Below, one piece after another: positions 4,507-62,985 of a DNA stretch of 64,000 bases. The notes below the pieces were generated by a model. It searched no databases, was not told the origin of the DNA, and saw nothing but the letters and a program-made list of their open reading frames with translations. Source of the DNA: a virus; the IMG/VR virus record IMGVR_UViG_3300046787_000200, positions 213,090-277,089 of that record, one strand, 5' to 3'. A program made the translations under genes and the position numbers. Numbering within the stretch: position 1 is the stretch's first letter; each line of letters starts with the position of its first letter.

Positions 4507-4688
4507 TGAAAGAAATAGTAATAACAAGAAATCAATTTGAGAAATTAAAAGAAGTTTTTGAAATGTACGACCTTGATAGAGTTGTTTGGAAAGAAAATTC
4601 ATCTAGTGGCATCGGTCCCACAGTTACAATTGAATTTGATCCAAAGAGCACAATGAAGATGGACATCACCGATGTTGATAGTTGGTAA
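4494..4688 (+). CDS. hypothetical protein
   Basis: 64 aa ORF overlapping the queE stop; in the operon orientation. Confidence 0.4.
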   Translation: MGNIMKEIVITRNQFEKLKEVFEMYDLDRVVWKENSSSGIGPTVTIEFDPKSTMKMDITDVDSW

Positions 4689-4705
4689 TAATATAAAGGA
4701 AATTA

Positions 4706-7550: not shown

Positions 7551-8377
7551 AAAAAGTTTTAATTACAGGTAACAGTGGTTACATAGGTTCACATCTTACT
7601 AAGATGTTAAAGAATGATTATGAAGTTTATGGATTAGATAAAGTAGAGCCACAAGAGTCACCTCATACATTCTATCATTGTGATATCAATCGTCAGTTTA
7701 GTTTAGAAGATGAGTTTGATTGTGTGATTCATTTAGCCGCATTGGTTAATGTAGGTGAAAGCGAAATCAAACCTATTCCATATTACATTACTAATTTGAA
7801 TGGCACAATGAATGTGTTGAATAAAATTAAAACAAAGAACTTTATCTTTGCAAGCACAGGAGCCGCACAAGATTGTTGTAGTGCATACGGAATTAGTAAA
7901 CGTGCGGCAGAAGATGTAGTTAGAGAATATTGTATCACCCATCGTCCAACACCATATACAATCTTTAGATTTTATAATGTTATTGGAAGCGAAGGCTTTG
8001 CTCCCACTAACCCCGATGGATTGATGTATAATCTAATTATGGCTATGCAATCAAAACAGTTTACTATATTCGGTAATGATTATGATGTATCACCTGATGG
8101 CACTTGTATTAGAGATTATGTTCATGTAAATGAAATATGTGATGCATTAAAACAAGCTATTGAGAAACCTAGTAATAGTGTAGAATGTTTGGGTCACGGA
8201 GTAGGATATACTGTAAAAGAGATTGTTGATGAGTTTCAAAAAGTCAATAATATCAACTTCAACGTGAAATACGGTTCAAGAAGAAAGGGTGATGTGGCCA
8301 GTAGTGTATTAGAAGATGTATCTCCTTATATGCGTAATTTGTATACAATAGACGAGTTGCTAAAGGTTGACAAATAA
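7544..8377 (+). CDS. NAD-dependent epimerase/dehydratase (SDR family)
   Basis: VLITGNSGYIGSHL Rossmann motif and a YGISK (YxxxK) catalytic motif. Confidence 0.7.
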   Translation: MVKKVLITGNSGYIGSHLTKMLKNDYEVYGLDKVEPQESPHTFYHCDINRQFSLEDEFDCVIHLAALVNVGESEIKPIPYYITNLNGTMNVLNKIKTKNFIFASTGAAQDCCSAYGISKRAAEDVVREYCITHRPTPYTIFRFYNVIGSEGFAPTNPDGLMYNLIMAMQSKQFTIFGNDYDVSPDGTCIRDYVHVNEICDALKQAIEKPSNSVECLGHGVGYTVKEIVDEFQKVNNINFNVKYGSRRKGDVASSVLEDVSPYMRNLYTIDELLKVDK

Positions 8378-10253: not shown

Positions 10254-10682
10254 TTATAATTGATTACGTTTCTTAGCTAAGAACTGTTCAGCAATCATCA
10301 CCAACTCTTGCATTTGCTCAATACTCTCACAGTTCCATCTACGCAAACTCTTGTTAATGTTACTATTTGGATCTCTCGCTGTCTTGGCGCTAGTTCTGCT
10401 TTTCTTCATGCCCTTCATTCTAGCACAGAATGATTTACGGCGTTTAGCGGCTTTACTGCCCTTTTTAAGTTTGCTAGGTTTAGTAGTAACAGCAGTTTGA
10501 ATCTTGCTACCAGGATGACTACGACGGTAGCTGGCTACACTCTTTTTACTCATGCCACCAACTCGTTTGTTATTATGCTTTGACCAATTTTCGCCTTCTT
10601 CTACATGCTCACACTCACATGGATTTTTTCCACAATGTGGACACATGTTGCTTGATTCAGTTAAAATTTCACTTATTCTCAT
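10254..10682 (-). CDS. highly basic small protein with an N-terminal Cys/His cluster (possible DNA-binding or internal virion protein)
   Basis: 142 aa on the minus strand. CPHCGKNPCECEH, then a K/R-rich body. Confidence 0.5.
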   Translation of the reverse strand: MRISEILTESSNMCPHCGKNPCECEHVEEGENWSKHNNKRVGGMSKKSVASYRRSHPGSKIQTAVTTKPSKLKKGSKAAKRRKSFCARMKGMKKSRTSAKTARDPNSNINKSLRRWNCESIEQMQELVMIAEQFLAKKRNQL

Positions 10683-10759: not shown

Positions 10760-11791
10760 ATGCACTCATTTGACACTACTAACAAACGTATCGGTTTCGC
10801 CTGTAAATGGGCAGAAATCAATAAAAAAGGTGAGATTGTATCTGCCGAAGGTCTTAACACTGGTGGTACTACACAAGCTTGGGCAAAGCGTAATAGTCGT
10901 AGTGTAGTAGAAGAAAAGATTATGGATGTTGCTAAACGTAACATTATGAATACTCACGCATTGGTTAAGAAAGTTGCTACACTTGAACCCGAACTACGAA
11001 TGTTGCGTCTTACTAGTGATATGCTCAGTTTCTATACTATGGATGAATACAAAGACTTTTGGCATTCAACTGATGTTCAGAATTCGCTTGAACGTTGGAT
11101 GGCTCCTATCGGTGAAACTGCTCGGGCTAATGACGTTCGCTTGTCATTTCATCCTGACCAATTTGTAGTTTTAGCAAGTGACCGTGAAGAAGTAGTAAAT
11201 AAGAGTATAGATGAATTTGAATATCACGTTGACATGGCTAGATTTATGGGTTATGGTCAGAAGTTTCAGGATATCAAAATCAATGTTCACATTTCTGGTC
11301 GTAAAGGTCCTCAGGGCATCAGGGATGTGTATGGTAGACTTAGCCCTGAGGCACGAAACACACTAACACTAGAGAATGAGGAATACACACATGGACTTAC
11401 TGACTGCTTATCATTATCTGACCTCGTACCTACGGTCATGGACATACATCATCACTGGATTCGTGAGGGAGAATACATCGATTGTAATGACGTACTTGTT
11501 AAAAGGGTTATTGACAGTTGGCGTGGCGTACGCCCTACTTTACATTATTCTGTCAGTAGGGAAGATTGTCTTGTTGAACACTCCCGAAATGAACGTCCCT
11601 CCCATAATGCGTTGATTGAGGCAGGATACAGTAAACAGAAGCTTAGGGCACACAGTGATTACTATTGGAATGATGCAGTGAACGATTGGGCATTGACATT
11701 TATTGATAGTTTTGATATGATGTGTGAAAGCAAAGCTAAGAACTTAGCTAGCTTTAAATTACTAGAGAGATACAAATGTTTGAAAAATTAA
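10760..11791 (+). CDS. uvsE: UV DNA damage endonuclease (UvdE/UvsE family)
   Basis: RLSFHPDQFVVLAS ... INVHISGRKG ... TLENEE ... DIHHH ... RAHSDYY align with UvsE catalytic blocks. Confidence 0.75.
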   Translation: MHSFDTTNKRIGFACKWAEINKKGEIVSAEGLNTGGTTQAWAKRNSRSVVEEKIMDVAKRNIMNTHALVKKVATLEPELRMLRLTSDMLSFYTMDEYKDFWHSTDVQNSLERWMAPIGETARANDVRLSFHPDQFVVLASDREEVVNKSIDEFEYHVDMARFMGYGQKFQDIKINVHISGRKGPQGIRDVYGRLSPEARNTLTLENEEYTHGLTDCLSLSDLVPTVMDIHHHWIREGEYIDCNDVLVKRVIDSWRGVRPTLHYSVSREDCLVEHSRNERPSHNALIEAGYSKQKLRAHSDYYWNDAVNDWALTFIDSFDMMCESKAKNLASFKLLERYKCLKN

Positions 11792-13481: not shown

Positions 13482-14495
13482 ATGAAATACGCACTAATAG
13501 ACACAGCTAACACATTCTTTCGTGCCCGTCACGTTGCCTCACGTAACAGTGATCCTTGGGAAAAGGTGGGCATGGCACTACATCTTACACTTGCATCAGT
13601 CAATCAAATGGTGCGTAAGTTTGGAATTGATCACGTAGTATTCTGCTTAGAGGGCCGTAGCTGGCGCAAAGATCATTACGAGCCCTACAAGAAAAATCGT
13701 GTAGTTGATGCACTATCACAAACTGAAGCAGAACGTGAAGAAAATGAAATGTTTTGGGATACATATGAAAAGTTTACTACGTATCTTAAAGAGAAAACTA
13801 ATGTTTCAGTATTGAGACACGAACGTGCCGAGGCAGATGACTTGATTGCTCGCTTCATTCACTTGCATCCTAATGATGAACATTTTATCATCAGTAGCGA
13901 TACCGACTATGTTCAACTTATCAATGAAAATGTTAAACAATATAATGGTGTAGCTGGTCAACTAATTACGCTTGAAGGTTACTTTGATGATAAGGGTAAA
14001 GTAGTTAAAGACAAGAAAACTAAAGAACCCAAGCTACTCGGTGACCCTCAATGGCATCTATTTATGAAATGTATGCGTGGTGATAGTAGTGACAATGTAT
14101 TCAGTGCTTATCCCGGTGTGCGTGAAAAAGGTACTAAGAATAAAGTTGGCTTGACTGAAGCGTATGCTGATAGACATAAGCAAGGCTTCAATTGGAACAA
14201 CATGATGTTGCAACGTTGGGTTGACCACAATGAGGTTGAACACCGTGTTAAAGATGATTACGAGCGCAACCGTGTACTGATTGACTTGACTGCACAACCA
14301 CAAGAAATCAAAGATGCAGTTGATGCACGTATTAAGGAGAGTGTTCGTGTAACTACTATACCTCAAGTTGGTATTCACTTTATGAAATTCTGCGGAAAAT
14401 ATGAACTTACTAAAATTTCTGAACAAGCCGAAACGTATGCTAAATGGCTTAATTCGCCCTATAACGGAGCCCTTCATGTTACCGAACGTACTTAA
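13482..14495 (+). CDS. 5'-3' exonuclease / flap endonuclease (T4 RNase H / T5 FEN family)
   Basis: ALIDTANTFFRA N-terminus and IISSDTDYVQLI (the -DKD-xQL- FEN block). Confidence 0.75.
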   Translation: MKYALIDTANTFFRARHVASRNSDPWEKVGMALHLTLASVNQMVRKFGIDHVVFCLEGRSWRKDHYEPYKKNRVVDALSQTEAEREENEMFWDTYEKFTTYLKEKTNVSVLRHERAEADDLIARFIHLHPNDEHFIISSDTDYVQLINENVKQYNGVAGQLITLEGYFDDKGKVVKDKKTKEPKLLGDPQWHLFMKCMRGDSSDNVFSAYPGVREKGTKNKVGLTEAYADRHKQGFNWNNMMLQRWVDHNEVEHRVKDDYERNRVLIDLTAQPQEIKDAVDARIKESVRVTTIPQVGIHFMKFCGKYELTKISEQAETYAKWLNSPYNGALHVTERT

Positions 14496-26853: not shown

Positions 26854-27054
26854 ATGACAAATTTAGAAGTAAGAGAGAAGCTTTTGCAGGCACAAGATTT
26901 ACTATCCGATGTTTATCATTGGGCTAAGCAACCACATACCAAGTTTACTGGTATGGATATGAATAGTCAGATAGCTAGGTACACAAGCGATGCCGATTCT
27001 TCTATTAATGATTCCCTTGAGGAATTAAAACATCCCAATGGATGTATGCCTTAA
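26854..27054 (+). CDS. hypothetical protein
   Basis: 66 aa ORF. Confidence 0.35.
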   Translation: MTNLEVREKLLQAQDLLSDVYHWAKQPHTKFTGMDMNSQIARYTSDADSSINDSLEELKHPNGCMP

Positions 27055-27064
27055 GGAGTTAAGA

Positions 27065-28414
27065 ATGAGTGCAAGTTGGATTAATAAACTAAACGAATCA
27101 GATAGTCGCCTTCATAAGGAAGATGTACTCAAACAGGCATTAGAGGCAAGTGTCCTCGGTAGTGACAATGCTATCAAATTTTTGACATTGACTAAACTTA
27201 CATATAATCCCTATGTGACATTCGGTGTCAGAAAAGTTCCTGATACTGTGGGCATCGTTGATGCAGAAAATCCTTGGGAAGACTTTGATAAACTATTGTG
27301 TGAGTTAGGTTCACGAGGCTTGTCAGGTAATGCCGCACTTGATGCTATCAATGAAATGAGTGAGCGGTTTAACAGTGACGAATGGAATACATTCTGTGCT
27401 CCTGTTATTCGCAGAGACTTACGAGCAGGTATTAGCGATAAGACAATCAATAAAGTTTGTAAAAAGACTGACTACGAGATTCCTGTATTCGGTTGTCAGT
27501 TAGCAACTAACTGTGAAGGTCGCCCAGAGATGAAGGGTACTAAGCGTTTAGAGCCTAAACTTGATGGTGTGCGTGTATTGATGTTTGTGATTCCCGGTGC
27601 AGATTTCGGCATCACTACAGTTTGCTATAGTCGTAATGGTAAAGTGTTTGATAACTTTACACATATTGAACAACAAGTTAGTGATAACTTTGTTAAGATT
27701 GTTCGTGCTTGTAATGGTACCGATCAAGGTCGTAGTTTGATTGATGGCTTTGTATTAGATGGTGAAGTGATTGGTAATACATTCCAAGAACTGATGCGAC
27801 AGGCACGCCGTAAGACTGATGTACAAGCCGATGATAGTGTGTTTAATATCTTTGATATTATTCCATTAAGTGATTTCCGTCAAGGTCATTATAATGCACA
27901 ATTGCGTAAGCGTATCGCATTACTTGATAGTATGCGCCCAGTCGTTGACGAAATGCCCAATGTAGAGTTGTTGCCACACATCATGGTTGACTTAGATACT
28001 GCGGCAGGCAAGGATCAGTTCAATAGATATTGTAGAGATATGGTAGAAGCTGGTTTTGAAGGTGTGATGATTAAAGAGTTAGAAGCACCATACATCTGTA
28101 AGCGTAGCACTGATTGGATGAAATATAAACCCACATTAACGGTAGATTTGGAGGTCGTATGTGTTGAAGAAGGTACTGGTAGAAACTTGGGAAGACTTGG
28201 AGCATTGGTTTGTCATGGAGTTGACGACGGGAAAGAAATTACAGTCAATGTGGGTAGTGGCTTTAGTGATGGTGATCGAGATGATTACTGGACTAATCGC
28301 AATCTGGTCATTGGTCGAACTGCTGAAGTATTGTGTGATGTGATTACACAGAACAGGGATGGTACTTACAGTTTGCGTTTCCCTCGCTTTATTAGATTCA
28401 GGGATGACAAATGA
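27065..28414 (+). CDS. ATP-dependent DNA ligase
   Basis: Motif I EPKLDGVR (KxDGxR). Start set at the ATG after AAGGAG. Size is T4/T7-ligase-like. Confidence 0.7.
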   Translation: MSASWINKLNESDSRLHKEDVLKQALEASVLGSDNAIKFLTLTKLTYNPYVTFGVRKVPDTVGIVDAENPWEDFDKLLCELGSRGLSGNAALDAINEMSERFNSDEWNTFCAPVIRRDLRAGISDKTINKVCKKTDYEIPVFGCQLATNCEGRPEMKGTKRLEPKLDGVRVLMFVIPGADFGITTVCYSRNGKVFDNFTHIEQQVSDNFVKIVRACNGTDQGRSLIDGFVLDGEVIGNTFQELMRQARRKTDVQADDSVFNIFDIIPLSDFRQGHYNAQLRKRIALLDSMRPVVDEMPNVELLPHIMVDLDTAAGKDQFNRYCRDMVEAGFEGVMIKELEAPYICKRSTDWMKYKPTLTVDLEVVCVEEGTGRNLGRLGALVCHGVDDGKEITVNVGSGFSDGDRDDYWTNRNLVIGRTAEVLCDVITQNRDGTYSLRFPRFIRFRDDK

Positions 28415-31603: not shown

Positions 31604-32416
31604 ATGAATCGTTCTATTAAACTCTCTCTTATCGCTATCGCAGTTGCATTGACTAGTGCTTGCACCCGTATTGAAACTGGTGAGGTCGGTGTTCGTGTTG
31701 GCTTTGACAAACAAGTCAAGCCCGGTGAACTTGAACCCGGTAGCTTCAACCAAGTGCTTGTCGGTGATGTGTTGACCTTCCCATACAAGGATGTTAATAT
31801 CACTATTGACAATATGACTCCTGTTGCGAAAGACAACAGCACTATGAAAGACCTTGATGCGGTGATTGTTTACAACATCAACAAGAATCAAGCCGCTGAA
31901 CTGTATTCTACCAAGAACCGCAGTTTCCACGCTGACTTCAAAGGCGACACTTACTTGATGTATAACTACATTGTTCAGAATGCCCGTAATGCTATCTACA
32001 AGTCTGCACGAAAGTATGAAGCATTGGATATGGCAGACAATCGCACTGAGATGGAGAATTACATCAAAGATGAAATCACACGCAACCTTGCAGAAGAAAA
32101 ACTAGATGGTAGTATCACTATCACACAGGTTATGATTCGTACTGTAGTTCCAAGTGATACAGTTGTTGCAAGTGCAAATGATTTGGTTCGTAGTAAAAAC
32201 GAATTGAAGCAAAAAGAAGTTGAAGTTAAAACTGCTGAAGCAGAGGCCCGTCGTATTGCGGCTCTAGCACAAAATGCAGGTGCTATTCAATATATGGATG
32301 CTCAGGCTCGTATGAAGCAAGCAGATGCGGCACTTGAAACTGCTAAGGCTATTGCATCATTCAAGGGTAATACTCTTGTGATTGGTGCTGGAACTAATGT
32401 CAATGTAGGTAAATAA
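31604..32416 (+). CDS. SPFH/Band-7 (stomatin/HflK-like) domain lipoprotein
   Basis: Lipobox LTSAC. IETGEVGVRVGF ... DLDAVIVYNI is SPFH-like. Coiled-coil C-terminus. Confidence 0.55.
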   Translation: MNRSIKLSLIAIAVALTSACTRIETGEVGVRVGFDKQVKPGELEPGSFNQVLVGDVLTFPYKDVNITIDNMTPVAKDNSTMKDLDAVIVYNINKNQAAELYSTKNRSFHADFKGDTYLMYNYIVQNARNAIYKSARKYEALDMADNRTEMENYIKDEITRNLAEEKLDGSITITQVMIRTVVPSDTVVASANDLVRSKNELKQKEVEVKTAEAEARRIAALAQNAGAIQYMDAQARMKQADAALETAKAIASFKGNTLVIGAGTNVNVGK

Positions 32417-36711: not shown

Positions 36712-37914
36712 ATGTCAACAGAAAACAAACTCAATCATTGCTCATTTTGTGATAAACACAAAGATGATGTTAAGAAACTAATTGTTAGCGAAGAAGTGGC
36801 AATTTGTAGTGATTGCGTAGAACTATGCAATTCACTTATGTTAGATGATGATGGTAAAAGTGAATTTGTATCGGAAGATACTGTATCATATGATCCAGAA
36901 TCAATTAAAGATTATCTTGACCAACATGTTATCGGACAAGATAATGCTAAAAAAGTGTTAAGTGTTGCTATTGCTAATCACTATAAACGTATCAACCGGC
37001 CACCAAAAGACTTAGAAATCTCTAAGGGTAATGTGTTGCTTGTTGGTCCTACTGGCTCAGGTAAAACATTGCTTGCTAAGACAGTTGCCAAATATCTCAA
37101 AGTGCCCTTTGTTGTAGCAGATGCGACAAGTATCACTGAAGCTGGTTATGTAGGTGATGACGTTGAATCCATGATTAGTATGTTACTCAATGCCGCTGGC
37201 GGTGATGTTAAACTGGCCGAGCGTGGTATTGTGTTCATTGATGAGATTGACAAGATTGCACGTAAAGGCGAATCTGCAAGTATCACCCGTGATGTGTCAG
37301 GTGAGGGTGTTCAGCAAGCTTTACTGAAAATGGTTGAAGGCACTGTATGTCGTATTCCAGCAGGTGGTGGACGTAAACATCCCGGTGGTGATATGATTGA
37401 GATTAACACTAAGAATATCTTATTCATTGCCGGTGGTGCATTTGTTGGGTTGAAAGATATTATTAAAAGTAGAGAAACTGGATCTAGTATCGGGTTCGGG
37501 GCTAAAATCAAAGATAAGAGCATAGAGGGCAATCTAAGCAACGTTAGCCCAGACGATTTAGTTAAATTCGGTATGATTCCTGAATTCATCGGACGTTTCA
37601 CTACTACTGTAAACGTAGAGGATTTGAGCAAAGAAGATTTGGTAAAGGTATTGACTGGTATTAAGAATAACTATATCGACCAATACAAGTATTTGCTGAG
37701 TTTAGACAACATTGAGTTAAACTTCACAGAAGATGCATTGGATCAGTTAGCAGAGAATACACTAGCATTGAAAACAGGTGCTCGTGGATTGCATACTGAG
37801 ATTGAGCGTGTATTGATGACACATATGTTTAATACTAAGAAATACCGTGAAAATAAAATTCTAAACATAAATATAGATAGAAAACAAATTTTGGAGCCAA
37901 AAGTATTAGTATGA
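36712..37914 (+). CDS. clpX: ATP-dependent Clp protease ATP-binding subunit ClpX
   Basis: N-terminal C4 zinc domain (CSFC ... CSDC), Walker A LLVGPTGSGKTLLAKT, and ClpX-wide similarity over 400 aa. Confidence 0.9.
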   Translation: MSTENKLNHCSFCDKHKDDVKKLIVSEEVAICSDCVELCNSLMLDDDGKSEFVSEDTVSYDPESIKDYLDQHVIGQDNAKKVLSVAIANHYKRINRPPKDLEISKGNVLLVGPTGSGKTLLAKTVAKYLKVPFVVADATSITEAGYVGDDVESMISMLLNAAGGDVKLAERGIVFIDEIDKIARKGESASITRDVSGEGVQQALLKMVEGTVCRIPAGGGRKHPGGDMIEINTKNILFIAGGAFVGLKDIIKSRETGSSIGFGAKIKDKSIEGNLSNVSPDDLVKFGMIPEFIGRFTTTVNVEDLSKEDLVKVLTGIKNNYIDQYKYLLSLDNIELNFTEDALDQLAENTLALKTGARGLHTEIERVLMTHMFNTKKYRENKILNINIDRKQILEPKVLV

Positions 37915-38748: not shown

Positions 38749-39054
38749 ATGTCTAAAACTGATACTAAAATTAAAATCAAACCTAATCTTGCACTAGCAG
38801 AACCCCCATTGTATAAAATCATTTATATCAATGATGAAGTAACCAGTATGCAATTTGTAGTAAACAGTTTGATTAGTTATTTTAATTATAATGAAGATAC
38901 TGCAACTTCATTGACAGAGAATATTCATCATCAAGGTAGTGCAGTTGTTGCAGTTTTACCGTACGAAATTGCAGAGCAAAAGGGAATTGAAGTAACACTT
39001 GATGCACGTAGCAAGGGTTTTCCACTACAAGTCAAAGTAGAAGCTGAGGCTTAA
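38749..39054 (+). CDS. clpS: Clp protease adaptor ClpS (N-degron recognin)
   Basis: PPLYKIIYINDEVTSMQFVV ... HHQGSAVVAVLPYEIAE matches the ClpS core. Confidence 0.8.
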   Translation: MSKTDTKIKIKPNLALAEPPLYKIIYINDEVTSMQFVVNSLISYFNYNEDTATSLTENIHHQGSAVVAVLPYEIAEQKGIEVTLDARSKGFPLQVKVEAEA

Positions 39055-42278: not shown

Positions 42279-42866
42279 ATGTCTCTAGTACCAATCGTTA
42301 TTGAACAAACAAGCAAAGGTGAACGTAGCTATGATATCTATAGCCGTCTAATGCGTGACCGTGTTATTCTGCTTGAAGGTGAAGTTCACGACCAAATGGC
42401 AAATCTAATTGTTGCTCAACTACTATTCCTCGAAAGTGAAGGTGACAAAGATATCTCAATGTATATCAATAGCCCAGGTGGTAGTGTAACTGCTGGTATG
42501 GCAATCTATGATGCTATGCAATTCATTAAACCCGATGTACAAACAATCGTTATGGGTCAAGCTTGTTCAATGGGTTCACTACTCGCACAAGCAGGAGCTA
42601 AAGGTAAACGTATGATGTTGCCTAATGCACGACACATGATTCACCAACCCTCAGGTGGCGCACGTGGTATGCAAAGTGATATCGAAATCAGCTATAAAGA
42701 AATTACTTACTTGAAGAAACGCCTAACCGATATCTATGTCAAGCATAACAGTGCAGGAAAGACTTATGAAGAATTTGAACGAGACATGGACCGTGATAAG
42801 TTCATGTCGGCTGAAGAAGCATTAGCTTACGGCTTGATTGATAAAATTATTGAAAAGAGAGAATAA
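42279..42866 (+). CDS. clpP: ATP-dependent Clp protease proteolytic subunit ClpP
   Basis: [19 protein letters not shown]-type N-terminus. Catalytic-region blocks [23 protein letters not shown] and HQPSGG. Confidence 0.9.
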
Positions 42867-50014: not shown

Positions 50015-50254
50015 ATGTTTGATAATATGACAAAGCAACTAGACTTACAAACTCTAGGCAAGGGACAAAAAGATTTTAAAATTACTAAGGAAGAATTCGA
50101 AGATTTTTGCAAAGGGTTTCTGTTTGAACAGATTAAAGGCAATGATAAATTAGGTGAAGCCTTTTGCAAAAAGTACAACGAGACTAATTTTGTACTAAGT
50201 ATATTACCCAACGAATCTGCTATAGAGCATATTAAAAAATTCTACGTAAGATGA
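50015..50254 (+). CDS. hypothetical protein
   Basis: 79 aa ORF. Confidence 0.35.
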   Translation: MFDNMTKQLDLQTLGKGQKDFKITKEEFEDFCKGFLFEQIKGNDKLGEAFCKKYNETNFVLSILPNESAIEHIKKFYVR

Positions 50255-50772
50255 AACAAAAATTTATAGACTATTATATGGATGTTGCAGAACGCACATC
50301 AAAACTATCCAGCGCAATTCGCAGACAAGTAGGTGCTGTTATTGTTAAAGAGAATCGTATTCTCAGTTATGGTTACAATGGTATGCCAACTGGTTGGACT
50401 AACGAATGTGAGTACAAAGATTATATGAGTGGCGATGCAGGTGGATGGTTAAACCCTGACGAAATTTATGAAAAGTGGCCACATGAAGAATATGACAAAA
50501 CAGTAGAATCCAATCGAAGATACAGATTAGTCACTAAGGATGAAGTATTACACGCTGAGAGTAACGCAATCGCTAAAGTGTCCGGCTCAACAGAATCTAG
50601 CGAAGATGCTACATTGTTTGTGACCACAGCTCCATGCATTCATTGTGCTAAGATGATTTTTCAGTCAGGTATCAAAAGTGTATTCTACCGCGATACTTAC
50701 CGTGACGATGCGGGAGTAGAATTTTTAGAAAAGGGCGGAGTGAGTGTCACCCGATACCCAGTACAAGACTGA
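50251..50772 (+). CDS. dCMP (deoxycytidylate) deaminase
   Basis: HAESNAI and PCIHCAKMI zinc-binding motifs (the HAE ... PCxxC pattern). Confidence 0.75.
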   Translation: MKQKFIDYYMDVAERTSKLSSAIRRQVGAVIVKENRILSYGYNGMPTGWTNECEYKDYMSGDAGGWLNPDEIYEKWPHEEYDKTVESNRRYRLVTKDEVLHAESNAIAKVSGSTESSEDATLFVTTAPCIHCAKMIFQSGIKSVFYRDTYRDDAGVEFLEKGGVSVTRYPVQD

Positions 50773-50944: not shown

Positions 50945-51213
50945 TGAAGTACTATACATTTTACCGTGAGAGTAATAACTTTGATGATATCTTAAATGAT
51001 CAAATTATCAAAAAGATCATTGATGAAAAAGTGCGTTGGTATCAACATTTGATTATTGGTATGCAGGACACCAACGAACAATCATTTAGTTATATCACAT
51101 TAAAATACGGTGACGAGATGGTGCAGGAATTGATAAAAGATCGTAGTCCTATACCGGGCGTTGACTATATGCCTAAACGTGATGCTAGTAAGTATAAGAA
51201 AGTCATAGAATGA
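50932..51213 (+). CDS. hypothetical protein
   Basis: 93 aa ORF. Confidence 0.4.
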   Translation: MEKIMKYYTFYRESNNFDDILNDQIIKKIIDEKVRWYQHLIIGMQDTNEQSFSYITLKYGDEMVQELIKDRSPIPGVDYMPKRDASKYKKVIE

Positions 51214-51707
51214 ACCATGATTATATTATAGAAAAGTTAACAACATGGATGAAGGGATTTGTAGAAATTCCTAATCCTTTATTGGGGAATTGGCCTCCCT
51301 GTCCTTATGCTAGACAAGCACGAATCAATAACAAAATCGAAATTGTTTATTCAGGTCACGATGTTATTCCTGCAACAGTAGAACAAAATCTAAGTAAGCT
51401 AGAAGATAAAGATGTTATCATTGTTTATTTTGATCATAAGATGATTCAGCCTGATGCACTTGCAGACTTAGTTAAAGTGTATAATGAGGGCTTCTTAATG
51501 CCTAGAAACTATGTAGCATTAGAGGATCATCCTGATTCAGTTGAATATGTCAATAATGTAAAGATGAACTTCGGTGAGTGTGGGCTATTGATTGTATCTA
51601 AACTAGACATGCTAAATGATGCTAGTGATAAGATACGAGAAAAGGGCTATTATAAACATTGGTCACAGGAAGAATTAGATTCAGTAGTCTCCTGGCGATA
51701 TAAATAA
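51210..51707 (+). CDS. hypothetical protein
   Basis: 165 aa ORF. Confidence 0.4.
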   Translation: MNHDYIIEKLTTWMKGFVEIPNPLLGNWPPCPYARQARINNKIEIVYSGHDVIPATVEQNLSKLEDKDVIIVYFDHKMIQPDALADLVKVYNEGFLMPRNYVALEDHPDSVEYVNNVKMNFGECGLLIVSKLDMLNDASDKIREKGYYKHWSQEELDSVVSWRYK

Positions 51708-51711
51708 GTTA

Positions 51712-52149
51712 ATGAAATTCTGCAGGATAAACTTATCTAAAACTAATTACACTCCCTTGAAATATGCCTATCATATGCCAATGATAGAACGTGATGCCAG
51801 TATGGATAATCTAAAAGAAATATACCGTAAATATTGCGCTTACAAACAATTTGATAGTGTAGTTCCTTTATTTGAAGGTATGATACTTGACAAATACACA
51901 GATGTAATTGGATACTATCCAAACGACAAGTTATCAGCATTTAGTATAGTTAAACGATATGACCGAGAAAATGCAGAAGCATTGCAATTTGCATGGGATT
52001 ATAAAAACCCTGAACTACGATTAGGCATAGAAAGCCTCAAGCATGAATGTGCTTACTATAAAAGTCAAGGATACAAATATTTGTATCTAGGACTTGCAGA
52101 CGAATATAAAAGCCAAATTGATGGCTACGAAATATTAGGACCATTATAA
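51712..52149 (+). CDS. hypothetical protein (weak resemblance to the Bpt/ATE C-terminal region)
   Basis: KYLYLGLADEY weakly resembles the YxYLGYW block of arginyl/leucyl-tRNA protein transferases. Confidence 0.35.
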   Translation: MKFCRINLSKTNYTPLKYAYHMPMIERDASMDNLKEIYRKYCAYKQFDSVVPLFEGMILDKYTDVIGYYPNDKLSAFSIVKRYDRENAEALQFAWDYKNPELRLGIESLKHECAYYKSQGYKYLYLGLADEYKSQIDGYEILGPL

Positions 52150-52481
52150 TGGATATATATCACATTTGGTGTGACAAATCAGAAGACATACCCGACTTAG
52201 AGTGGGTTAATAATATGAAGGGGTTCTTGGACCACCTCGTATCAGAAAAGAAAATGGAATCATATCGTATCACTAGATGCAAGATGGGATTTCGTAGTAT
52301 CGCAGATATGCCTGAATGGCATATTATGATGGAATTTACAGACATGGCTCAGATGGATAATGCATTCAAACGAGTCGCACCACTTGAAGGGGAATTAGAA
52401 ACTAAGCATAAGAGTTTCAATCAATTCGTTAGTGGTAATATACAACACGCACTTTTTAGAGATTGGCCAGACATATTATGA
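52149..52481 (+). CDS. hypothetical protein
   Basis: 110 aa ORF. Confidence 0.4.
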   Translation: MDIYHIWCDKSEDIPDLEWVNNMKGFLDHLVSEKKMESYRITRCKMGFRSIADMPEWHIMMEFTDMAQMDNAFKRVAPLEGELETKHKSFNQFVSGNIQHALFRDWPDIL

Positions 52482-53536
52482 CATATTCAGTTTATCAACA
52501 TTGGGATCCATTAAAGGTAATGGTAGTAGGAAAATCATATCCTCCCGAGTTATATGATTACATTAAGAACGAAAAGGTTCGTAAAGTATTTTATCAAATC
52601 GCAGAAGAAACAGAAGAAGATTATCAAAAGTTATCTAACTTGTTATCTACATTCGGAGTAAACGTTATACGTTGTGATATGGATGAACAAACAGCATTCG
52701 CAAAACAATGTATTAAGAAAAATGCTCCTATATCAAAACCATGGGCTATGCAACCGAGAGATGCTACAATTATGTTAGGCGAAACATTTTATTGTAGTGA
52801 TCATATGGTGCAACCATTGCATGAAGCGTTAGATTTATTAAAATTAAATGGTAATAAAATTGATACTATGGTTCCTGATTCAGGCTTCAAGTATAATAAT
52901 AACCCTATCTATATGAATGCCGCAATGACAACACGTGTGGGTAAAGATTTAATAATAGGAACACTTGATCAAGTTGACAAAGATACTAACATAGGTTTGT
53001 TAGAGAAAAATCTACAAGATAGGTTTACTGAGTACCGAGTCAAAATGATTGCTACACACGGGCATACTGATGGGTGTTTTTGTCCAGTAGTACCTGGTTT
53101 GATTTTTAGTATTATGGGACCATGGAATTATAAAAGTACTTTTCCTGATTGGGAAGTGTTGTACTTACACGGTGAATCTTGGTCTAAGGTACAAAACTTT
53201 TTAAACTTAAAGAAAAACAATGCAGGTAAATGGTGGGTGCCAGGACAAGAACTAAACCAAGATTTTACTGATTACGTAGAAACTTGGATGAATCATTGGG
53301 TTGGATATGTAGAAGAAAGTGTATTTGATGTTAATATGATTGTAGTTGACAAAAAGAATGTTATCGTAAATAGCTACAATGAAAAGGCATTCGATGCGTT
53401 TAGTCGTCATGGCATAACACCGCATATCTGCAACTTCCGTCATCGTTATTTCTGGGACGGTGGATTACATTGTATTACGTCAGATATCCACCGTGAAGGT
53501 GTGATGGAAGATTACTTCCCGGAACGTAATCAATAA
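52478..53536 (+). CDS. amidinotransferase-superfamily enzyme (glycine/inosamine amidinotransferase-like)
   Basis: C-terminal GGLHCITSDIHREG matches the GGxHCxTxDxxRxG catalytic-Cys block. Start at the ATG overlapping the previous stop. Confidence 0.45.
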   Translation: MTYSVYQHWDPLKVMVVGKSYPPELYDYIKNEKVRKVFYQIAEETEEDYQKLSNLLSTFGVNVIRCDMDEQTAFAKQCIKKNAPISKPWAMQPRDATIMLGETFYCSDHMVQPLHEALDLLKLNGNKIDTMVPDSGFKYNNNPIYMNAAMTTRVGKDLIIGTLDQVDKDTNIGLLEKNLQDRFTEYRVKMIATHGHTDGCFCPVVPGLIFSIMGPWNYKSTFPDWEVLYLHGESWSKVQNFLNLKKNNAGKWWVPGQELNQDFTDYVETWMNHWVGYVEESVFDVNMIVVDKKNVIVNSYNEKAFDAFSRHGITPHICNFRHRYFWDGGLHCITSDIHREGVMEDYFPERNQ

Positions 53537-54261
53537 GTAAGTGCAAGAAGCTTTGCTTCAGGAATACGTGTCTTAGTATTCTTTGAACCTAACAGGACTA
53601 CGGTCCTGATTCCATTTGCAGTATCAATCATCATAACGATACATCCACCTGCTTTACTAATAAAGCCTGTCTTACTGACTAAGAACTTATAGCCATTACC
53701 TACTAGACTATTTGTGTTTCTAAACTCTGCTGTTTTCTTCTTAGTAAGAGGCCAACGAACTGCATCCATATTACTTGCATGAACAATTAGTGGATACTGA
53801 CTTGCCGCAAGTACTAACTTAATCAAATCTTCTGCCGTACTTACGTTTGTATGAAATCTACCAGTTGGGTCAGTAAATGCACTATTAGACATTTGTAATG
53901 ATACTGCCTTTGCATTCATGGCTTCAACACAATTTTTATATCCACCGGGATAATAATCACATAACATCTTTGCGGCATTGTTGTCTGATTTTACAATTGC
54001 TAAATCAATCAATGTTTCACGTGTTAACTGCTTGTTGTACAATTTCTTTGGGATAATTTCCGTTAATGATTGTCCGCTGTCTAGTACGACCATTGCTGTC
54101 ATTAGTTTAGTAATGCTTGCGATACTACGGATCTCTGTGGTATTAGAACCTTCAAGTATCTTTCCATTAATATCAGCAACTAACCAAGCTTGCGCTGTTA
54201 ATGGGGTTGCATGTACTGAACTTGACACAAGCAATAATGTTATTAATAGTTTTTTAATCAT
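53530..54261 (-). CDS. serine-type D-Ala-D-Ala endopeptidase/carboxypeptidase (PBP7/PbpG-like, S11)
   Basis: Signal peptide, SITK (SxxK), SDN (SxN) and KTGF (KTG) motifs in the correct order. Confidence 0.7.
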   Translation of the reverse strand: MIKKLLITLLLVSSSVHATPLTAQAWLVADINGKILEGSNTTEIRSIASITKLMTAMVVLDSGQSLTEIIPKKLYNKQLTRETLIDLAIVKSDNNAAKMLCDYYPGGYKNCVEAMNAKAVSLQMSNSAFTDPTGRFHTNVSTAEDLIKLVLAASQYPLIVHASNMDAVRWPLTKKKTAEFRNTNSLVGNGYKFLVSKTGFISKAGGCIVMMIDTANGIRTVVLLGSKNTKTRIPEAKLLALTY

Positions 54262-54581
54262 ACTGATGGTCCTCTTTTATAATTTATAAGTTTCAAGTCA
54301 GTGCCTGTTCCAACAACACAGCTTAACTCATCTTTAGTTGCAATTATAGTCCAATCTTTATCAGTGCCATTCATCCAAACACTCATAGTAGATTCAGCTT
54401 CATCATCAGCTTTACCTGTTAGTAGTGGCAATTCTTTGTATTTCTCTCTGAGATTTTTAAAAAGTTCTTTTGTGTTATAGCACGGTAACTCTGCCTTCAC
54501 AGTGGTTTCTAATTTCTGAGAGTATAAATTGCTTGGTAATACTAAGCAACCTAAAATTAATATTAGGTAATGTAATTTCAC
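54258..54581 (-). CDS. secreted small protein
   Basis: Signal peptide MKLHYLILILGCLVLPSNLYSQ. ATGA-coupled to the PBP gene. Confidence 0.4.
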   Translation of the reverse strand: MKLHYLILILGCLVLPSNLYSQKLETTVKAELPCYNTKELFKNLREKYKELPLLTGKADDEAESTMSVWMNGTDKDWTIIATKDELSCVVGTGTDLKLINYKRGPSV

Positions 54582-54641
54582 TGGGATTCCTATTTTTACT
54601 ATTATAGCATATTATTGTTAAGTATGCTATTTAATCTTACC

Positions 54642-54824
54642 CTACTTGCAATCTTTGTTGTTTTTAACAAACCAATAATGCTTTTGTAATTCTCTAAGCA
54701 CTTCGCTTTCGGGTTGCTTGAATTGTCTTGCAGCCATTTCAACAAAATCTACCCATCTGAACCCGTAATCATTATTTCCTTGGCACCATTGTTGATACAT
54801 CAATTGTAATTCTCTGCCCGTCAT
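54642..54824 (-). CDS. hypothetical protein
   Basis: 60 aa minus-strand ORF. Confidence 0.3.
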   Translation of the reverse strand: MTGRELQLMYQQWCQGNNDYGFRWVDFVEMAARQFKQPESEVLRELQKHYWFVKNNKDCK

Positions 54825-54967
54825 TTCTTTTTCTTTTCTAGTGGTTCTTTTTGTTTAGTTACTTCGATTTTAGTTTCTTTCAACAGTTTTTCTGTTGTAG
54901 GGCTCGTGTAATGAGCATGAAGTTTAGGAGGATTCTTAGGTCTGGGCTTGTGTTTAAACCAACTCAT
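54821..54967 (-). CDS. hypothetical small basic protein (48 aa)
   Basis: Not in the track. ATGA-coupled to 54642-54824. Confidence 0.25.
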   Translation of the reverse strand: MSWFKHKPRPKNPPKLHAHYTSPTTEKLLKETKIEVTKQKEPLEKKKK

Positions 54968-55081
54968 AATAGTTCCTTTATGTTTATTTATCTACACACT
55001 TTATATTTGCCCATTTGTTGATAAATATCAATAGTAAAAACCATCTTTACTCAAATAAAAATAATAACAAGGAAAGAAAAG

Positions 55082-56209
55082 ATGAAAAAGACGATATTGG
55101 CTATAGCCATGAGCCTAAGCCTGGGTGTGATGGCTCAAACTACCACTACCTCAAGCAGTAGTGGAGGGACAACTACAGGAACAAGTACACTTATTAATCA
55201 AGGAACTTATGATTCTAAAAGTCTTGTAGATACAAATAGCACCAGTAACAGCACTAGCACAGTTACATCAAACAGTAATACAAATAGTACTAGCAATAGT
55301 AATAGTACCAGTGCGGTCACTAGCACTAGCACCAATACTAATAACAACAATAGCAATAGTACTAGTGTGAATACTAACAATAACATTCAAAGCGGAACTG
55401 TAACTAATAACAATAACAATGTTAATAGTGGGACAATGACATATAACAACAATAATGTCAATACAGGAACGATGACGTATAACAATAATAATGTTAGCAC
55501 AAGTACAAGTAATAACACAAACATTAACAAGAATGAAAATACTGGTACAATGACATATAACAACAATAATGTCAGTTCAAGTACGGCCACTAACAATAAC
55601 AACAATGTCAGCACAAGTACTGCCACTAACAATAATGTTAATACTGGTGATATGACTAACAGAAATATTAACACTTCAACTAGTTCTAGTACGGCTACTA
55701 ACAATAATATAAATCAAAATAATTCAGTTAATACGAATATTCAACAAGGTGAATTGACTAATAAGAATATCAACTCTACTGAGATTACACAAAAAGTTAT
55801 TCAGCCTCCACCTACTGCGGTAGCACCTGCTATGCTAAGTGGTGGAAACGCTGACCTATGTTCAACAGGTAGTTCAGGCAGCGTACAAACACAAGTGTTT
55901 GGTGTAAGTGCTGGCGGTACTGTACGTGATATGAATTGTGAACGATTAAAGTTGTCCAAGACCCTGTACGACATGGGCATGAAAGTTGCCGCAGTTGCTA
56001 CTATGTGTCAAGACCGTCGTGTGTTTGATGCTATGTTAGCCGCTGGCACACCTTGTCCGTTCGAAGGCAAGATAGGCGCACAAGCTCGTGCTGAATGGGA
56101 TGCAAATCCTGACAAGATTCCAAAACTAGATGAGGTAAAATTAGATGATACTTATAAGAAAGTTGGCATTGGCGCTATCCTTGGCGTTCTTGTCCACAAG
56201 TTATTCTAA
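55082..56209 (+). CDS. secreted Ser/Thr/Asn-rich repetitive protein with a conserved Cys-containing C-terminal domain
   Basis: Signal peptide MKKTILAIAMSLSLGVMA. GTMTYNNNNV tandem repeats. C-terminal domain with 4 Cys and a hydrophobic tail. Confidence 0.55.
   Translation: MKKTILAIAMSLSLGVMAQTTTTSSSSGGTTTGTSTLINQGTYDSKSLVDTNSTSNSTSTVTSNSNTNSTSNSNSTSAVTSTSTNTNNNNSNSTSVNTNNNIQSGTVTNNNNNVNSGTMTYNNNNVNTGTMTYNNNNVSTSTSNNTNINKNENTGTMTYNNNNVSSSTATNNNNNVSTSTATNNNVNTGDMTNRNINTSTSSSTATNNNINQNNSVNTNIQQGELTNKNINSTEITQKVIQPPPTAVAPAMLSGGNADLCSTGSSGSVQTQVFGVSAGGTVRDMNCERLKLSKTLYDMGMKVAAVATMCQDRRVFDAMLAAGTPCPFEGKIGAQARAEWDANPDKIPKLDEVKLDDTYKKVGIGAILGVLVHKLF
55420..55650 (+). repeat. in-frame tandem coding repeats (about 30-nt units encoding NNNNV(N/S)TGTMTY)
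   Basis: At least four near-identical units are visible within the 55082 ORF. Confidence 0.5.
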
Positions 56210-57824
56210 TAGTCAACAAATAGACACTACTGGTAATCTGACTAACTTTACTAATCAGGCTACTAGTATAACCTCTACTTGGCAAAATGCAGGTACTATA
56301 GGTCAACCTCTTACATGTTGGTACAGCGGTGATCCGGGCTATTGTGGTCCATTACCTAGAGTGGCTGCCTGGGGAGAAGGTAGTAATATCATTAACTTCT
56401 CGTATGGATTAACAGATTTATATCAAGTGGTTAACATCAAAAACGCATTACCTAACTCAGGTACAGGATTACAAGTCAATGGATTTAACTTTGGATTCAC
56501 TGCAAAAAACGGCAATGGATGGGATGACGGAAGACAAGATTACTTAACAGCTTATGTAAACATCTACAACAACACAAATTCAAAGGTACTTGAGTCTTAT
56601 AATTATAACGTGAATGGTCAATACAACTGGACACAGTTTTATTGGTCAGAAACATTCAAGTCACCATATGGTGTGCCTAGTCTAGGCAATGCTCAATACG
56701 GACTTATTGGTAAAGATAATAACTTTTGGGTTGGACCTTATGGTCCAGAAGTATCAGGTGTAAATTTTAGTTTAAAGTATAGTGTTGATCCTTGTGCAAC
56801 AAATCCACTATACTCACCTACATGTAAGGGCTACATGGATGCATTAGCAAAATTAGGTCCCGCTATTTTAACATCTACTGATACACCACCGCCTCCTCCA
56901 CCTGAAGATGGTGCGCCTCCAGCACCACCTCCTCCGGGTAGTCCTCCCCCACCTAGTAACCCGCAACAGTCTGGTCCTCTACCCCCTCCCGGTAGTCCAC
57001 CGCCTCCGGCAGGCTCTCAACCGCGTACAAATGAAACTAAAACTGCTAGTGATAATAAAGCGGGTCCTAGTTTAGGTTCTGTGTTGAGTATGATTAGCAG
57101 TAACCAAGCTAGAATAGGTAATGAAACTAAAGCAGTTGTTCAAGCCGCTGAGTCAGCCGCGGCTAAAGATGCACTACAAGCACAAGAACAGGCTGAGGCA
57201 GTTGCCGGGACATTGACTGCACAAAGTGTTACTAGCAGTATGGTAACTACAGGATCAACAACCTCACAAACAAACACATCTTCACAAACATCTGCGGTTG
57301 CCGTAGTAAACACTACACAAACTAACGTAGTTAGTGTCAGTGGATTACGTGCACCAATTCAGACTGTATTTTCTGACCCTAATATTACAATGAATAACAA
57401 TACATCATTTGGATCAACAGAAATGATGTATAGTTTGCAATCACCACAAGGTCGCAATGCTACTACTGAAATAGAAATCCCGCAGAATGAAGGTATCAAA
57501 ATGGGAACACGTTCTGTATTGAATGATGCGATTGAAGAACGACCAGTAGTACAAAATACAACTACACAAGAACAAAAGGCAGAAACAGTGAACAGAAATG
57601 TACAACCAAACGAATTAGCAGGTAAAGTAGATATTGCATCAATGGCGACACAACCTACAGGATATCAAGCATATTCTATGATGATGCCCGATGTAGCTTT
57701 CTATGCACCAAAAGAGATTTATAAGAATCAAAAGAACGTTGATAACGCTAGATTGTTAAGAGGTTTAGGTAGTGATAGACTACACCAAGAGATGGTTAAT
57801 CAACAGTATGCACCAAGGAATTAA
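56145..57824 (+). CDS. secreted protein with a beta-rich N-terminal domain, Pro-rich linker and Ser/Thr/Gln-rich C-terminus
   Basis: Signal-like N-terminus. PPPPPPEDGAPPAPPPPGSPPPP linker. Overlaps the previous ORF by 64 nt. Confidence 0.45.
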   Translation: MILIRKLALALSLAFLSTSYSNSQQIDTTGNLTNFTNQATSITSTWQNAGTIGQPLTCWYSGDPGYCGPLPRVAAWGEGSNIINFSYGLTDLYQVVNIKNALPNSGTGLQVNGFNFGFTAKNGNGWDDGRQDYLTAYVNIYNNTNSKVLESYNYNVNGQYNWTQFYWSETFKSPYGVPSLGNAQYGLIGKDNNFWVGPYGPEVSGVNFSLKYSVDPCATNPLYSPTCKGYMDALAKLGPAILTSTDTPPPPPPEDGAPPAPPPPGSPPPPSNPQQSGPLPPPGSPPPPAGSQPRTNETKTASDNKAGPSLGSVLSMISSNQARIGNETKAVVQAAESAAAKDALQAQEQAEAVAGTLTAQSVTSSMVTTGSTTSQTNTSSQTSAVAVVNTTQTNVVSVSGLRAPIQTVFSDPNITMNNNTSFGSTEMMYSLQSPQGRNATTEIEIPQNEGIKMGTRSVLNDAIEERPVVQNTTTQEQKAETVNRNVQPNELAGKVDIASMATQPTGYQAYSMMMPDVAFYAPKEIYKNQKNVDNARLLRGLGSDRLHQEMVNQQYAPRN

Positions 57825-62652: not shown

Positions 62653-62985
62653 ATGAATTTAACAATCACCGAATCAGCAGCCGCTAGAATGGCTGAATTA
62701 TTAGCAGACGAAGGTTTAACAGACCACACTAGAGTTCGTGTTTTTGTTCAAGGAGGGGGCTGTTCCGGTATGGAATATGGCTTTACTTTTTCGGATGAAA
62801 AGAACGAAGATGACTGGGAAGTTCCAGCCGGCTCATCAGTTGTATTAGTTGATAGTATGTCAGCCCAATACTTAAGTAGCGCAGAAATTGACTATGTTGA
62901 AGATTTAAACGGTGCTAGATTCAAAATAAACAATCCAAACGCACAAACTACGTGCGGATGCGGTAGTAGCTTTAGTCCATTCTGA
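62653..62985 (+). CDS. iscA: A-type iron-sulfur cluster carrier (IscA/ErpA, HesB family)
   Basis: [15 protein letters not shown] and a C-terminal CGCGSSF. Confidence 0.8.

Follow-up and report, generated by a model that had tools for sequence, protein, structure and literature searches.

The 64-kb stretch of DNA examined here (hereafter, the window) comes from a 352-kb viral genome, IMG/VR record IMGVR_UViG_3300046787_000200 (positions 213,090 to 277,089), and holds at 51210-53536 a cassette of four tightly packed genes, the last of which encodes a 352-amino-acid (aa) protein related to amidinotransferases. This last gene (termed AMT; 52478..53536, + strand) was delimited by open reading frame (ORF) calling and characterized by profile comparison with the PDB and by its predicted fold. 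It is preceded, in order, by g100 (51210..51707, +), encoding a 165-aa protein that resembles thiolate-heme enzymes; by a gene for a 145-aa protein that resembles the C-terminal GNAT lobe of arginyl/leucyl-tRNA-protein transferases (51712..52149, +; hereafter ATE-like); and by a gene for a 110-aa DUF6614 protein (52149..52481, +). The AMT reading frame begins with an ATG at 52478, with a TTG at 52463 as an alternative start, and this ATG shares bases with the DUF6614 stop codon (ttATGA). A scan of the region for promoters and terminators gave nothing informative. An initial annotation of this DNA, made from the letters alone, had described an amidinotransferase-superfamily ORF with a characteristic C-terminal block; both the ORF and the block, GGLHCITSDIHREG (53459..53500, +, by translation and HMMER alignment), which contains Cys332 and the invariant Arg339, are encoded in the window.

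The amidinotransferase-like gene and its active site

When the AMT sequence by itself was searched against all PDB chains, amidinotransferases alone rose above noise: HsvA, the polyamine amidinotransferase of Erwinia amylovora (5wpi; E = 2.6e-9, the best single-sequence match), SxtG of the saxitoxin pathway (6u1r; 4e-9), StrB1 (2.4e-7) and AGAT (8.6e-8 to 1e-5). HMMER pairs GGLHCITSDIHREG with GGGFHCWTCDVRRRG of human AGAT and with the equivalent blocks of HsvA and SxtG, so that the GGLHC of AMT lies opposite the GG-x-HC nucleophile block of the PDB amidinotransferases; the N-terminal WDPL-x-VG and H-x-D motifs are also paired, weakly, in these single-sequence alignments. An alignment of 60 AMT family sequences (A1) was used both as a profile and for an AlphaFold2 model. 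As a profile it matched SxtG (8.9e-33, the best profile match), AGAT (1.2e-31), HsvA (2.2e-30) and StrB1 (4.4e-29), covering the N-terminal, middle and C-terminal parts of AMT, and no further family in the PDB was matched at E ≤ 0.01. With profile E values of 9e-33 to 4e-29, the resemblance to amidinotransferases is far beyond chance. The AlphaFold2 model (pLDDT 90.4, pTM 0.91) gave a consistent picture in a Foldseek search of the PDB, in which the best seven matches were all amidinotransferases (AGAT, HsvA, SxtG and StrB1; 4e-18 to 3.5e-16) and arginine deiminases (ADIs), dimethylarginine dimethylaminohydrolases (DDAHs) and agmatine deiminases appeared at 2e-9 or weaker. Identity to the solved amidinotransferases is about 17-18%, with a TM-score of about 0.6, and the sole PHROGs match to AMT is PHROG 25854, a family of unknown function (1e-9). 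Judged by profile and predicted fold, AMT is almost certainly a divergent transferase-clade member of the guanidino-group-modifying superfamily. The superfamily assignment made initially was therefore right, yet it can be made more specific, with AGAT, StrB1, HsvA and SxtG as the nearest relatives, and the Joint Genome Institute (JGI) name of the protein, 'N-dimethylarginine dimethylaminohydrolase', is not justified.

The active site of AMT was read against that of AGAT, in which we take the catalytic triad to be Cys407-His303-Asp254, the guanidinium clamps to be Asp170 and Asp305, and the carboxylate contacts to be Arg322 and Ser355. Residues were mapped by HMMER alignments of the single sequence and of the A1 profile, and conservation was counted in the 60 aligned sequences of A1 and in 108 sequences from fetched loci. 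Cys332 falls at the position of Cys407, His196-Thr-Asp198 (53063..53071, +, by translation and HMMER alignment) corresponds to His303-x-Asp305, and Asp95 falls at the position of Asp170; Cys332, His196, Asp198 and Asp95 are each kept in 60/60 and 108/108 relatives. At the third triad position, HMMER aligns NAAMTTRVGKDL of AMT to DAADFIRAGRDI of AGAT, which puts Asn147 (52916..52918, +) in place of Asp254; among the cassette-linked members of the family, this column holds Asn in 53/60. Further invariant residues are specific to the family (Thr45, Asp48, Trp274, Gly276, Asn286, Asp327 and Arg339), and we know of no role for them in AGAT. Of the invariant acids, Asp48, Glu280 and Asp327 are conceivable stand-ins for Asp254. 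On the strength of these alignments, the nucleophile, base and guanidinium clamps are predicted to be intact, with remodeling of the third position of the triad and of the residues that would contact the substrate tail, a reading that follows from the invariance of Cys332, His196, Asp198 and Asp95 as opposed to the variable Asn147 and the unmatched Arg322 and Ser355. The Cys-His-Asp triad that the initial annotation proposed to check is thus preserved in its Cys and His, along with both clamping Asp residues, and not in the Asp of the triad itself.

Compared with AGAT/GATM (1jdw) and StrB1 (1bwd), AMT has fold and clade in common (Foldseek 4e-18 and 3.5e-16; profile 1e-31 and 4e-29, respectively), as well as the GG-x-HC block, the H-x-D motif, the Asp of a PRD motif and the N-terminal WDPL-x-VG. 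It departs from both in its non-conserved Asn147 at the triad Asp254 position, in the absence of conservation at the Arg322 and Ser355 positions, in a segment of its own at approximately residues 225-282 that carries the invariant Trp274, Gly276 and Glu280, and in being phage-borne. HsvA and SxtG both belong to multi-gene small-molecule pathways, and their partner genes differ from those of AMT.

The partner genes and their linkage to AMT

The protein encoded by the first gene of the cassette, g100, is predicted to form a sheet of four strands with helices on its flanks, the arrangement of AglA, and the model suggests an AglA-like thiolate-heme 'sandwich' fold (YqcI/YcgG, DUF6875/P422). Its Cys31, in the motif NWPPCPYA (51288-51311, +), is invariant in two alignments of the family (A3 and A4) and in distant homologues; the Cys31-Pro pair, likewise invariant, is a putative heme-ligand site, with Cys31 as the candidate counterpart of AglA Cys44. 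Searched by itself, g100 matched nothing in Pfam at E ≤ 0.01, and sequence and profile searches of the PDB also returned nothing. When its relatives were scanned one by one, weak, sub-threshold matches to DUF6875 recurred in 32/42 (best 9e-5), and matches to DUF1415 were found in 4/42. A 2025 preprint shows DUF6875 proteins to be heme enzymes with a thiolate ligand, named 'cytochrome P422', in which an RxGxVCP motif supplies the axial Cys. Members include Mc170 and other hydroxylases of Trp (at N1, C6 or C7), as well as ThnD, which forms C-S bonds. Like these proteins, g100 has a Cys-Pro at a putative heme-ligand position and a four-stranded sheet with helices; unlike them, it matches RxGxVCP only in part (GNWPPCP) and scores below the gathering cut-off. 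Based on the model, g100 is putatively a thiolate-heme oxygenase.

The second gene encodes the ATE-like protein, which is putatively related to the ATE_C family (PF04377) and would be an aminoacyl-tRNA-dependent transferase. Matches to ATE_C were found in 32/44 of its relatives (best 2e-9), and the family profile matched the ATE1 structures 7wfx/7wg1 (7e-5) over the C-terminal GNAT lobe. The ATE_C signature YLYLG...YK...G-E-L, present in ATE1 and bacterial Bpt, is also found in the phage protein. The third gene encodes a clear member of DUF6614 (PF20319, 2.3e-24), for which sequence and profile searches of the PDB gave no match. Across loci, the DUF6614 protein is 75-96% identical to the window copy, while in the same loci AMT is approximately 50-55%, the ATE-like protein approximately 50-57% and g100 33-58% identical; DUF6614 thus evolves far more slowly than its cassette neighbors. 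Many of its Arg, Lys and His residues are invariant, and its N-terminus is variable (MD-, MAD- or MSD-). A phage ORF 'predicted to be DUF6614' has been credited with activity against Druantia type I (one preprint).

Linkage among these genes was assessed from two directions. In the first, loci were anchored on AMT: 80 IMG/VR loci, drawn from at least 596 confirmed stretches, were combined with loci from an exact-protein look-up, and every gene of the window was compared with the ORFs of the resulting 85 loci. Many of the AMT-bearing IMG/VR contigs are 330-375 kb long. A relative of the ATE-like gene was present in 51/85 loci, of g100 in 47-48/85 and of DUF6614 in 33/85. By the same count, the dCMP deaminase gene upstream of the cassette (50251-50772; PF00383, 6e-22) and the Peptidase_S11 gene downstream of it (53530-54261, -) each recur in just 5/85 loci, and both were rejected as partners of AMT. 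Across related contigs of uncultured aquatic phages, the cassette genes occur in several orders, including g100-ATE-D6614-AMT (where D6614 denotes DUF6614), g100-ATE-AMT-D6614 and g100-AMT-ATE-D6614, as well as forms with ATE inverted, and the gene clusters that flank the cassette differ between loci.

In the second direction, a reciprocal search was anchored on g100, for which at least 540 relatives were found in IMG/VR, and the 61 loci with at least 2.5 kb of downstream sequence were counted. The ATE-like gene was found in 57/61, AMT in 43/61 and DUF6614 in 33/61. Cassettes without AMT take the form g100-ATE-D6614 or g100-ATE by itself, and in some of them the ATE-like protein is longer (225-244 aa). 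The core of the cassette is therefore g100 plus the ATE-like gene, with AMT and DUF6614 as frequent accessories, and AMT is very probably linked to the cassette in function as well as in position. In some related phages AMT has one or two paralogues, for a total of two or three copies (loci L003, L022, L029, L031, L042, L058, L085 and others). Certain copies lie off-cassette in contexts that recur, for example after a homologue of the NAD-dependent epimerase gene of the window (c18) or in the arrangement c37-c38-AMT-c39.

Distribution and genomic surroundings

Relatives of AMT are numerous: 4,322 word-indexed relatives were found in a set of 5.8 billion proteins, and an exhaustive search gave 732 clusters at 50% identity. 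The identical protein is recorded on a JGI contig of 352,012 bp. Among one genome each of 185,579 species there were 13 AMT loci, all on contigs from metagenome-assembled genomes (MAGs) or other assemblies of uncultured organisms, and several of these contigs are short or have phage-like gene content. The AMT family is thus almost entirely viral. Four of seven AMT homologues on MAG contigs (26-34% identity) have an adjacent g100-like gene (L090, L091, L093 and L096). AMT homologues of 26-30% identity lie on four Pseudobdellovibrionaceae/Bdellovibrio MAG contigs (L091, L095, L096 and L097), amid at least five radical-SAM/SPASM genes and a gene for a PP-loop ATPase, surroundings that resemble a cellular biosynthetic gene cluster; in L091 and L096 a g100-like gene stands beside AMT, and in L095 and L097 none is present within the 8-kb flanks.

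Megablast found no counterpart of the region in 50,697 phage records, and tblastn of AMT against phage records found four only, namely three Marine virus AG-345-D19 contigs and Synechococcus phage S-SCSM2R. ORF266 of the latter (PQ898602.1 213353-214246, L005) is the sole AMT relative in a cultured phage; it is 29% identical, is annotated as a glycine amidinotransferase and lies between KdsA/KdsB and 2OG-Fe(II) oxygenase genes. Its product has been reported in the purified-virion proteome. Proteins resembling g100 (22-32% identity, annotated as hypothetical) are encoded by cultured T4-like cyanophages (where they are labeled 'T4-LIKE GC 824'), by HMO-2011, a phage of SAR116 (Puniceispirillum), and by a Roseobacter phage. 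Carriers include S-RIM44, S-PM2, S-H9-2 and CRP-345, and two of the genes lie at NC_015288.1 63289-63828 (L179) and NC_021864.1 50770-51297 (L180). In cultured phages these genes occur singly, without the cassette. No description of the four-gene cassette was found in the literature.

Within the window, for which family scans took in ORFs of at least 80 aa, the cassette is followed at 53530-57824 by a cluster of apparently secreted proteins. The first of these is the Peptidase_S11 DD-carboxypeptidase, identified by family scan, which has a signal-like N-terminus and whose gene is convergent on AMT. Next come a small signal-bearing protein (54258-54581, -), a 375-aa low-complexity protein rich in Asn, Thr and Ser (55082-56209, +) and a protein of 559 aa whose core is rich in proline (56145-57824, +). 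At the other end of the window, 62-1331 encodes a cytidylyltransferase-like ORF and then an APS-kinase-like/P-loop ORF in which another cytidylyltransferase-like segment is found, and 7604-8377 encodes an NAD-dependent epimerase/dehydratase; these genes hint at sugar-nucleotide or sulfation chemistry. Other recognizable genes encode a DUF6321 protein (10254-10682, -), UvdE (10760-11791), a 5'-3' exonuclease (13482-14495), an ATP-dependent DNA ligase (27038-28414), an SPFH/Band 7 protein (31604-32416) and, probably, an Fe-S_biosyn protein (62653-62985, by homology to locus L003). A batch scan gave additional family matches in the window to Hsp20, SprT-like, NT5C deoxynucleotidase, GGACT/AIG2, GNAT acetyltransferase and DUF4337. 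No tRNA genes were found in the window.

Candidate functions of the cassette

A combination of enzyme types similar to that of the cassette is known from argolaphos biosynthesis, in which AglC, an Arg-tRNA-dependent ligase of the GNAT superfamily, reportedly acts before AglA (9ub3), which is said to be a YqcI/YcgG thiolate-heme guanidine N-hydroxylase. The phage proteins are much smaller than AglC and AglA (145 aa for the ATE-like protein and 165 aa for g100), and the phage GNAT protein matches ATE_C and not pfam13480. The phage cassette is also without phosphonate genes and has AMT and DUF6614 in addition. The likeness is one of logic, an analogy and not a demonstrated homology of pathways. 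Guided by this analogy, we give slightly less than even weight to the reading that a phage pathway adds aminoacyl groups and oxygen to an arginine- or guanidine-type compound, and that AMT provides or reshapes the guanidino substrate on which this pathway works.

In such a pathway, and on the model of AGAT and StrB1, Cys332 would attack the donor at its guanidinium carbon while Asp95 and Asp198 hold the guanidinium group and His196 serves as general acid/base; the most likely donor is L-arginine. An S-amidino-Cys332 enzyme would form with release of ornithine, and the amidino group would then be passed to an amine acceptor. AMT probably shares its compound with g100 and the ATE-like protein, because all three have ties to arginine or guanidine chemistry: AMT as a guanidine-forming transferase, g100 through a fold that is otherwise found in guanidine N-hydroxylases and Trp oxygenases, and the ATE-like protein through a domain of arginyl- and leucyl-tRNA transferases. 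Its most likely contribution is to supply or diversify a substrate and not to carry out the core step, because AMT is dispensable in approximately 30% of cassettes. With regard to the cassette as a whole, it is conceivable, although we consider it rather doubtful, that this putatively mobile set of genes from uncultured aquatic phages, many of them jumbo-sized, makes an N-oxygenated or aminoacylated guanidine compound during infection or installs such a group on a protein. Candidate products would include a hydroxyguanidine- or hydroxyarginine-type antimetabolite or signal.

Several observations weigh against the substrate-supply reading. With respect to AMT itself, the scan of Pfam and NCBIfam gave no relevant match even at E ≤ 10, including to the Amidinotransf and PAD_porph models through which the initial annotation had proposed to check its assignment. 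The Asn147 column varies in A1 (N in 21, S in 10, D in 7 and P in 4 of 60), the AGAT Ser355 position corresponds to the invariant Glu280 of AMT, and AGAT Arg322 has no aligned Arg; the latter two placements are tentative, as they come from an ungapped extension of the C-terminal alignment. AMT is also missing from approximately 30% of g100 cassettes, and so it would have no essential part in the core step. With respect to g100, the score against DUF6875 is 15.9 bits for a cut-off of 24.5, a Foldseek search of the PDB with the model had no match at E ≤ 1e-3, and the Trp-binding motifs SBR1 and SBR2 of P422 are not evident in the sequence as read by eye. A dedicated ferredoxin partner is not supported either, since a ferredoxin was found near the cassette in 7/177 loci. 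The ATE-like protein scores just under the PF04377 cut-off (6.9e-5; 23.9 bits for a cut-off of 25) and, unlike ATE1 and Bpt, consists of the C-terminal lobe only, without ATE_N. The characterized ATE/Bpt enzymes, to our knowledge, all act on protein N-termini and none on small molecules, and neither the ATE-like nor the DUF6614 protein has a match in cultured phage genomes.

That same property of the ATE_C family, whose characterized members all act on protein N-termini, underlies an alternative in which the cassette modifies proteins. Here the ATE-like protein would draw on aminoacyl-tRNA to extend protein N-termini by an amino acid, as ATE1 and Bpt do, AMT and g100 would edit residues (for example by turning Lys into homoarginine or by altering Arg, Trp or Cys), and these edits would feed a phage ClpS/ClpXP system, or DUF6614 would be a dedicated substrate or scaffold. 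The window does encode ClpX (36712-37914), the N-degron adaptor ClpS (38749-39054) and ClpP (42279-42866), which lie within 6 kb and with the ATE_C-like gene amount to a partial N-degron toolkit. The longer ATE-like forms of some AMT-less cassettes are about the size of bacterial Bpt, and the conservation of DUF6614 is what would be expected of a substrate, a scaffold or the binder of a conserved target. However, ClpS lies 13 kb away from the cassette, and ClpA, its normal partner, was not recognized in the window. The variable N-terminus of DUF6614 argues that it is not a uniform Asp/Glu acceptor, and we know of no amidinotransferase-clade enzyme that acts on proteins. We therefore regard N-degron editing as unlikely.

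We consider it distinctly unlikely that AMT is a hydrolase, that is, a deiminase- or DDAH-like enzyme that would scavenge nitrogen by splitting ammonia or urea off arginine or some other guanidine. Hydrolysis and transfer both occur within this superfamily and use one Cys-His chemistry, the JGI name implies DDAH activity, and the active site has been remodeled, as the triad Asp of AGAT and its acceptor and carboxylate contacts are lost; the abundance of the AMT family in aquatic viral contigs would also fit a scavenging role. The transferases are nevertheless closer, both by profile (1e-29 to 1e-33) and by Foldseek (1e-16 to 1e-18), whereas ADI, DDAH and agmatine deiminase have no sequence match to AMT and come far lower in the structural comparison. 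To retain three specific partners would, in addition, be surprising for a stand-alone scavenger.

A related proposal is that AMT is a stand-alone metabolic amidinotransferase that makes guanidinoacetate, homoarginine or amidinated polyamines from host pools, with its neighbors a matter of mere synteny. In its favor, a polyamine amidinotransferase, HsvA, tops the single-sequence PDB matches, and AMT paralogues are found off-cassette, beside an epimerase-like gene or, in cyanophage S-SCSM2R, beside KdsA/KdsB. The linkage, however, survives shuffling of gene order, strand inversion and changes of the flanks, down to approximately 30% identity, and inherited synteny alone hardly explains such persistence. 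The AMT start is also translationally coupled to DUF6614. Taking both sides into account, an independent role of this kind seems quite improbable.

The initial annotation had placed AMT in a nucleotide-metabolism neighborhood and had raised the formation of archaeosine-like or other hypermodified bases; it had also named polyamines or host molecules as possible targets. Under DNA hypermodification, AMT would help the phage to evade restriction by amidinating a base of its DNA or a precursor nucleotide, with archaeosine-like formamidino-7-deazaguanine or a guanidinylated aminoalkyl-pyrimidine as examples. The dCMP deaminase gene does lie 1.7 kb upstream of AMT, as was claimed. The 7-deazaguanine genes that it had also claimed are represented by a QueD/PTPS-like ORF (2007-2489) and a QueE-like radical-SAM ORF (3658-4506), whose best matches are to the QueD and QueE models, in both cases far below the curated cut-offs. 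These belong to a region (2007-5806) that encodes, in order, the QueD/PTPS-like protein, a DadA-like FAD D-amino-acid dehydrogenase (454 bits for a cut-off of 494), the QueE-like protein, a 64-aa ORF and MetK. No match to TGT/DpdA, QueC or FolE (GTP cyclohydrolase I) was found among the scanned ORFs of the window, which covers 64 of the 352 kb of the genome. Because QueC, FolE and DpdA were not seen, the region is not a canonical preQ0 set; the phage 7-deazaguanine systems link DpdA/TGT with FolE, QueD, QueE and QueC, and the window has QueD- and QueE-like ORFs only.

Two further points were counted in favor of DNA hypermodification. The cassette of L090 follows ORFs that, as read by eye, are putatively ribonucleotide reductase subunit-like, and the Mom protein of phage Mu is a GNAT-fold enzyme that modifies DNA. 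Across related loci, none of the recurrent AMT neighbor clusters that could be labeled is a DNA transglycosylase, hydroxymethylase or DNA glycosyltransferase, and TGT, QueC and GTP cyclohydrolase I were likewise not seen among the labeled conserved neighbors. With dCMP deaminase so rarely adjacent to AMT, the Que-like genes 48 kb away and no DpdA seen among the scanned ORFs of the window, the archaeosine-like or hypermodified-base reading does not hold up and is the least credible of the alternatives, with only a slim chance of being right. The nucleotide-metabolism neighborhood of AMT is incidental, and a DNA-modification annotation based on the dCMP deaminase neighbor is not justified.

Returning to the reading that AMT supplies or remodels a guanidino substrate, AMT appears to be a new, almost exclusively viral branch of the amidinotransferases, set in a cassette that is apparently undescribed. 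Two of the partners, at 145-165 aa, are compact and highly diverged versions of two recently characterized enzyme families and are potentially useful for enzymology. If the proposed function is true, the cassette would be the first known case of guanidine natural-product chemistry encoded by a virus, bringing together in phages three enzyme types that previously belonged to bacterial antibiotic and toxin pathways and to eukaryotic and bacterial N-degron biology. It would then mean that phages make specialized guanidine compounds or guanidine-type protein modifications, beyond the usual range of auxiliary metabolic genes.

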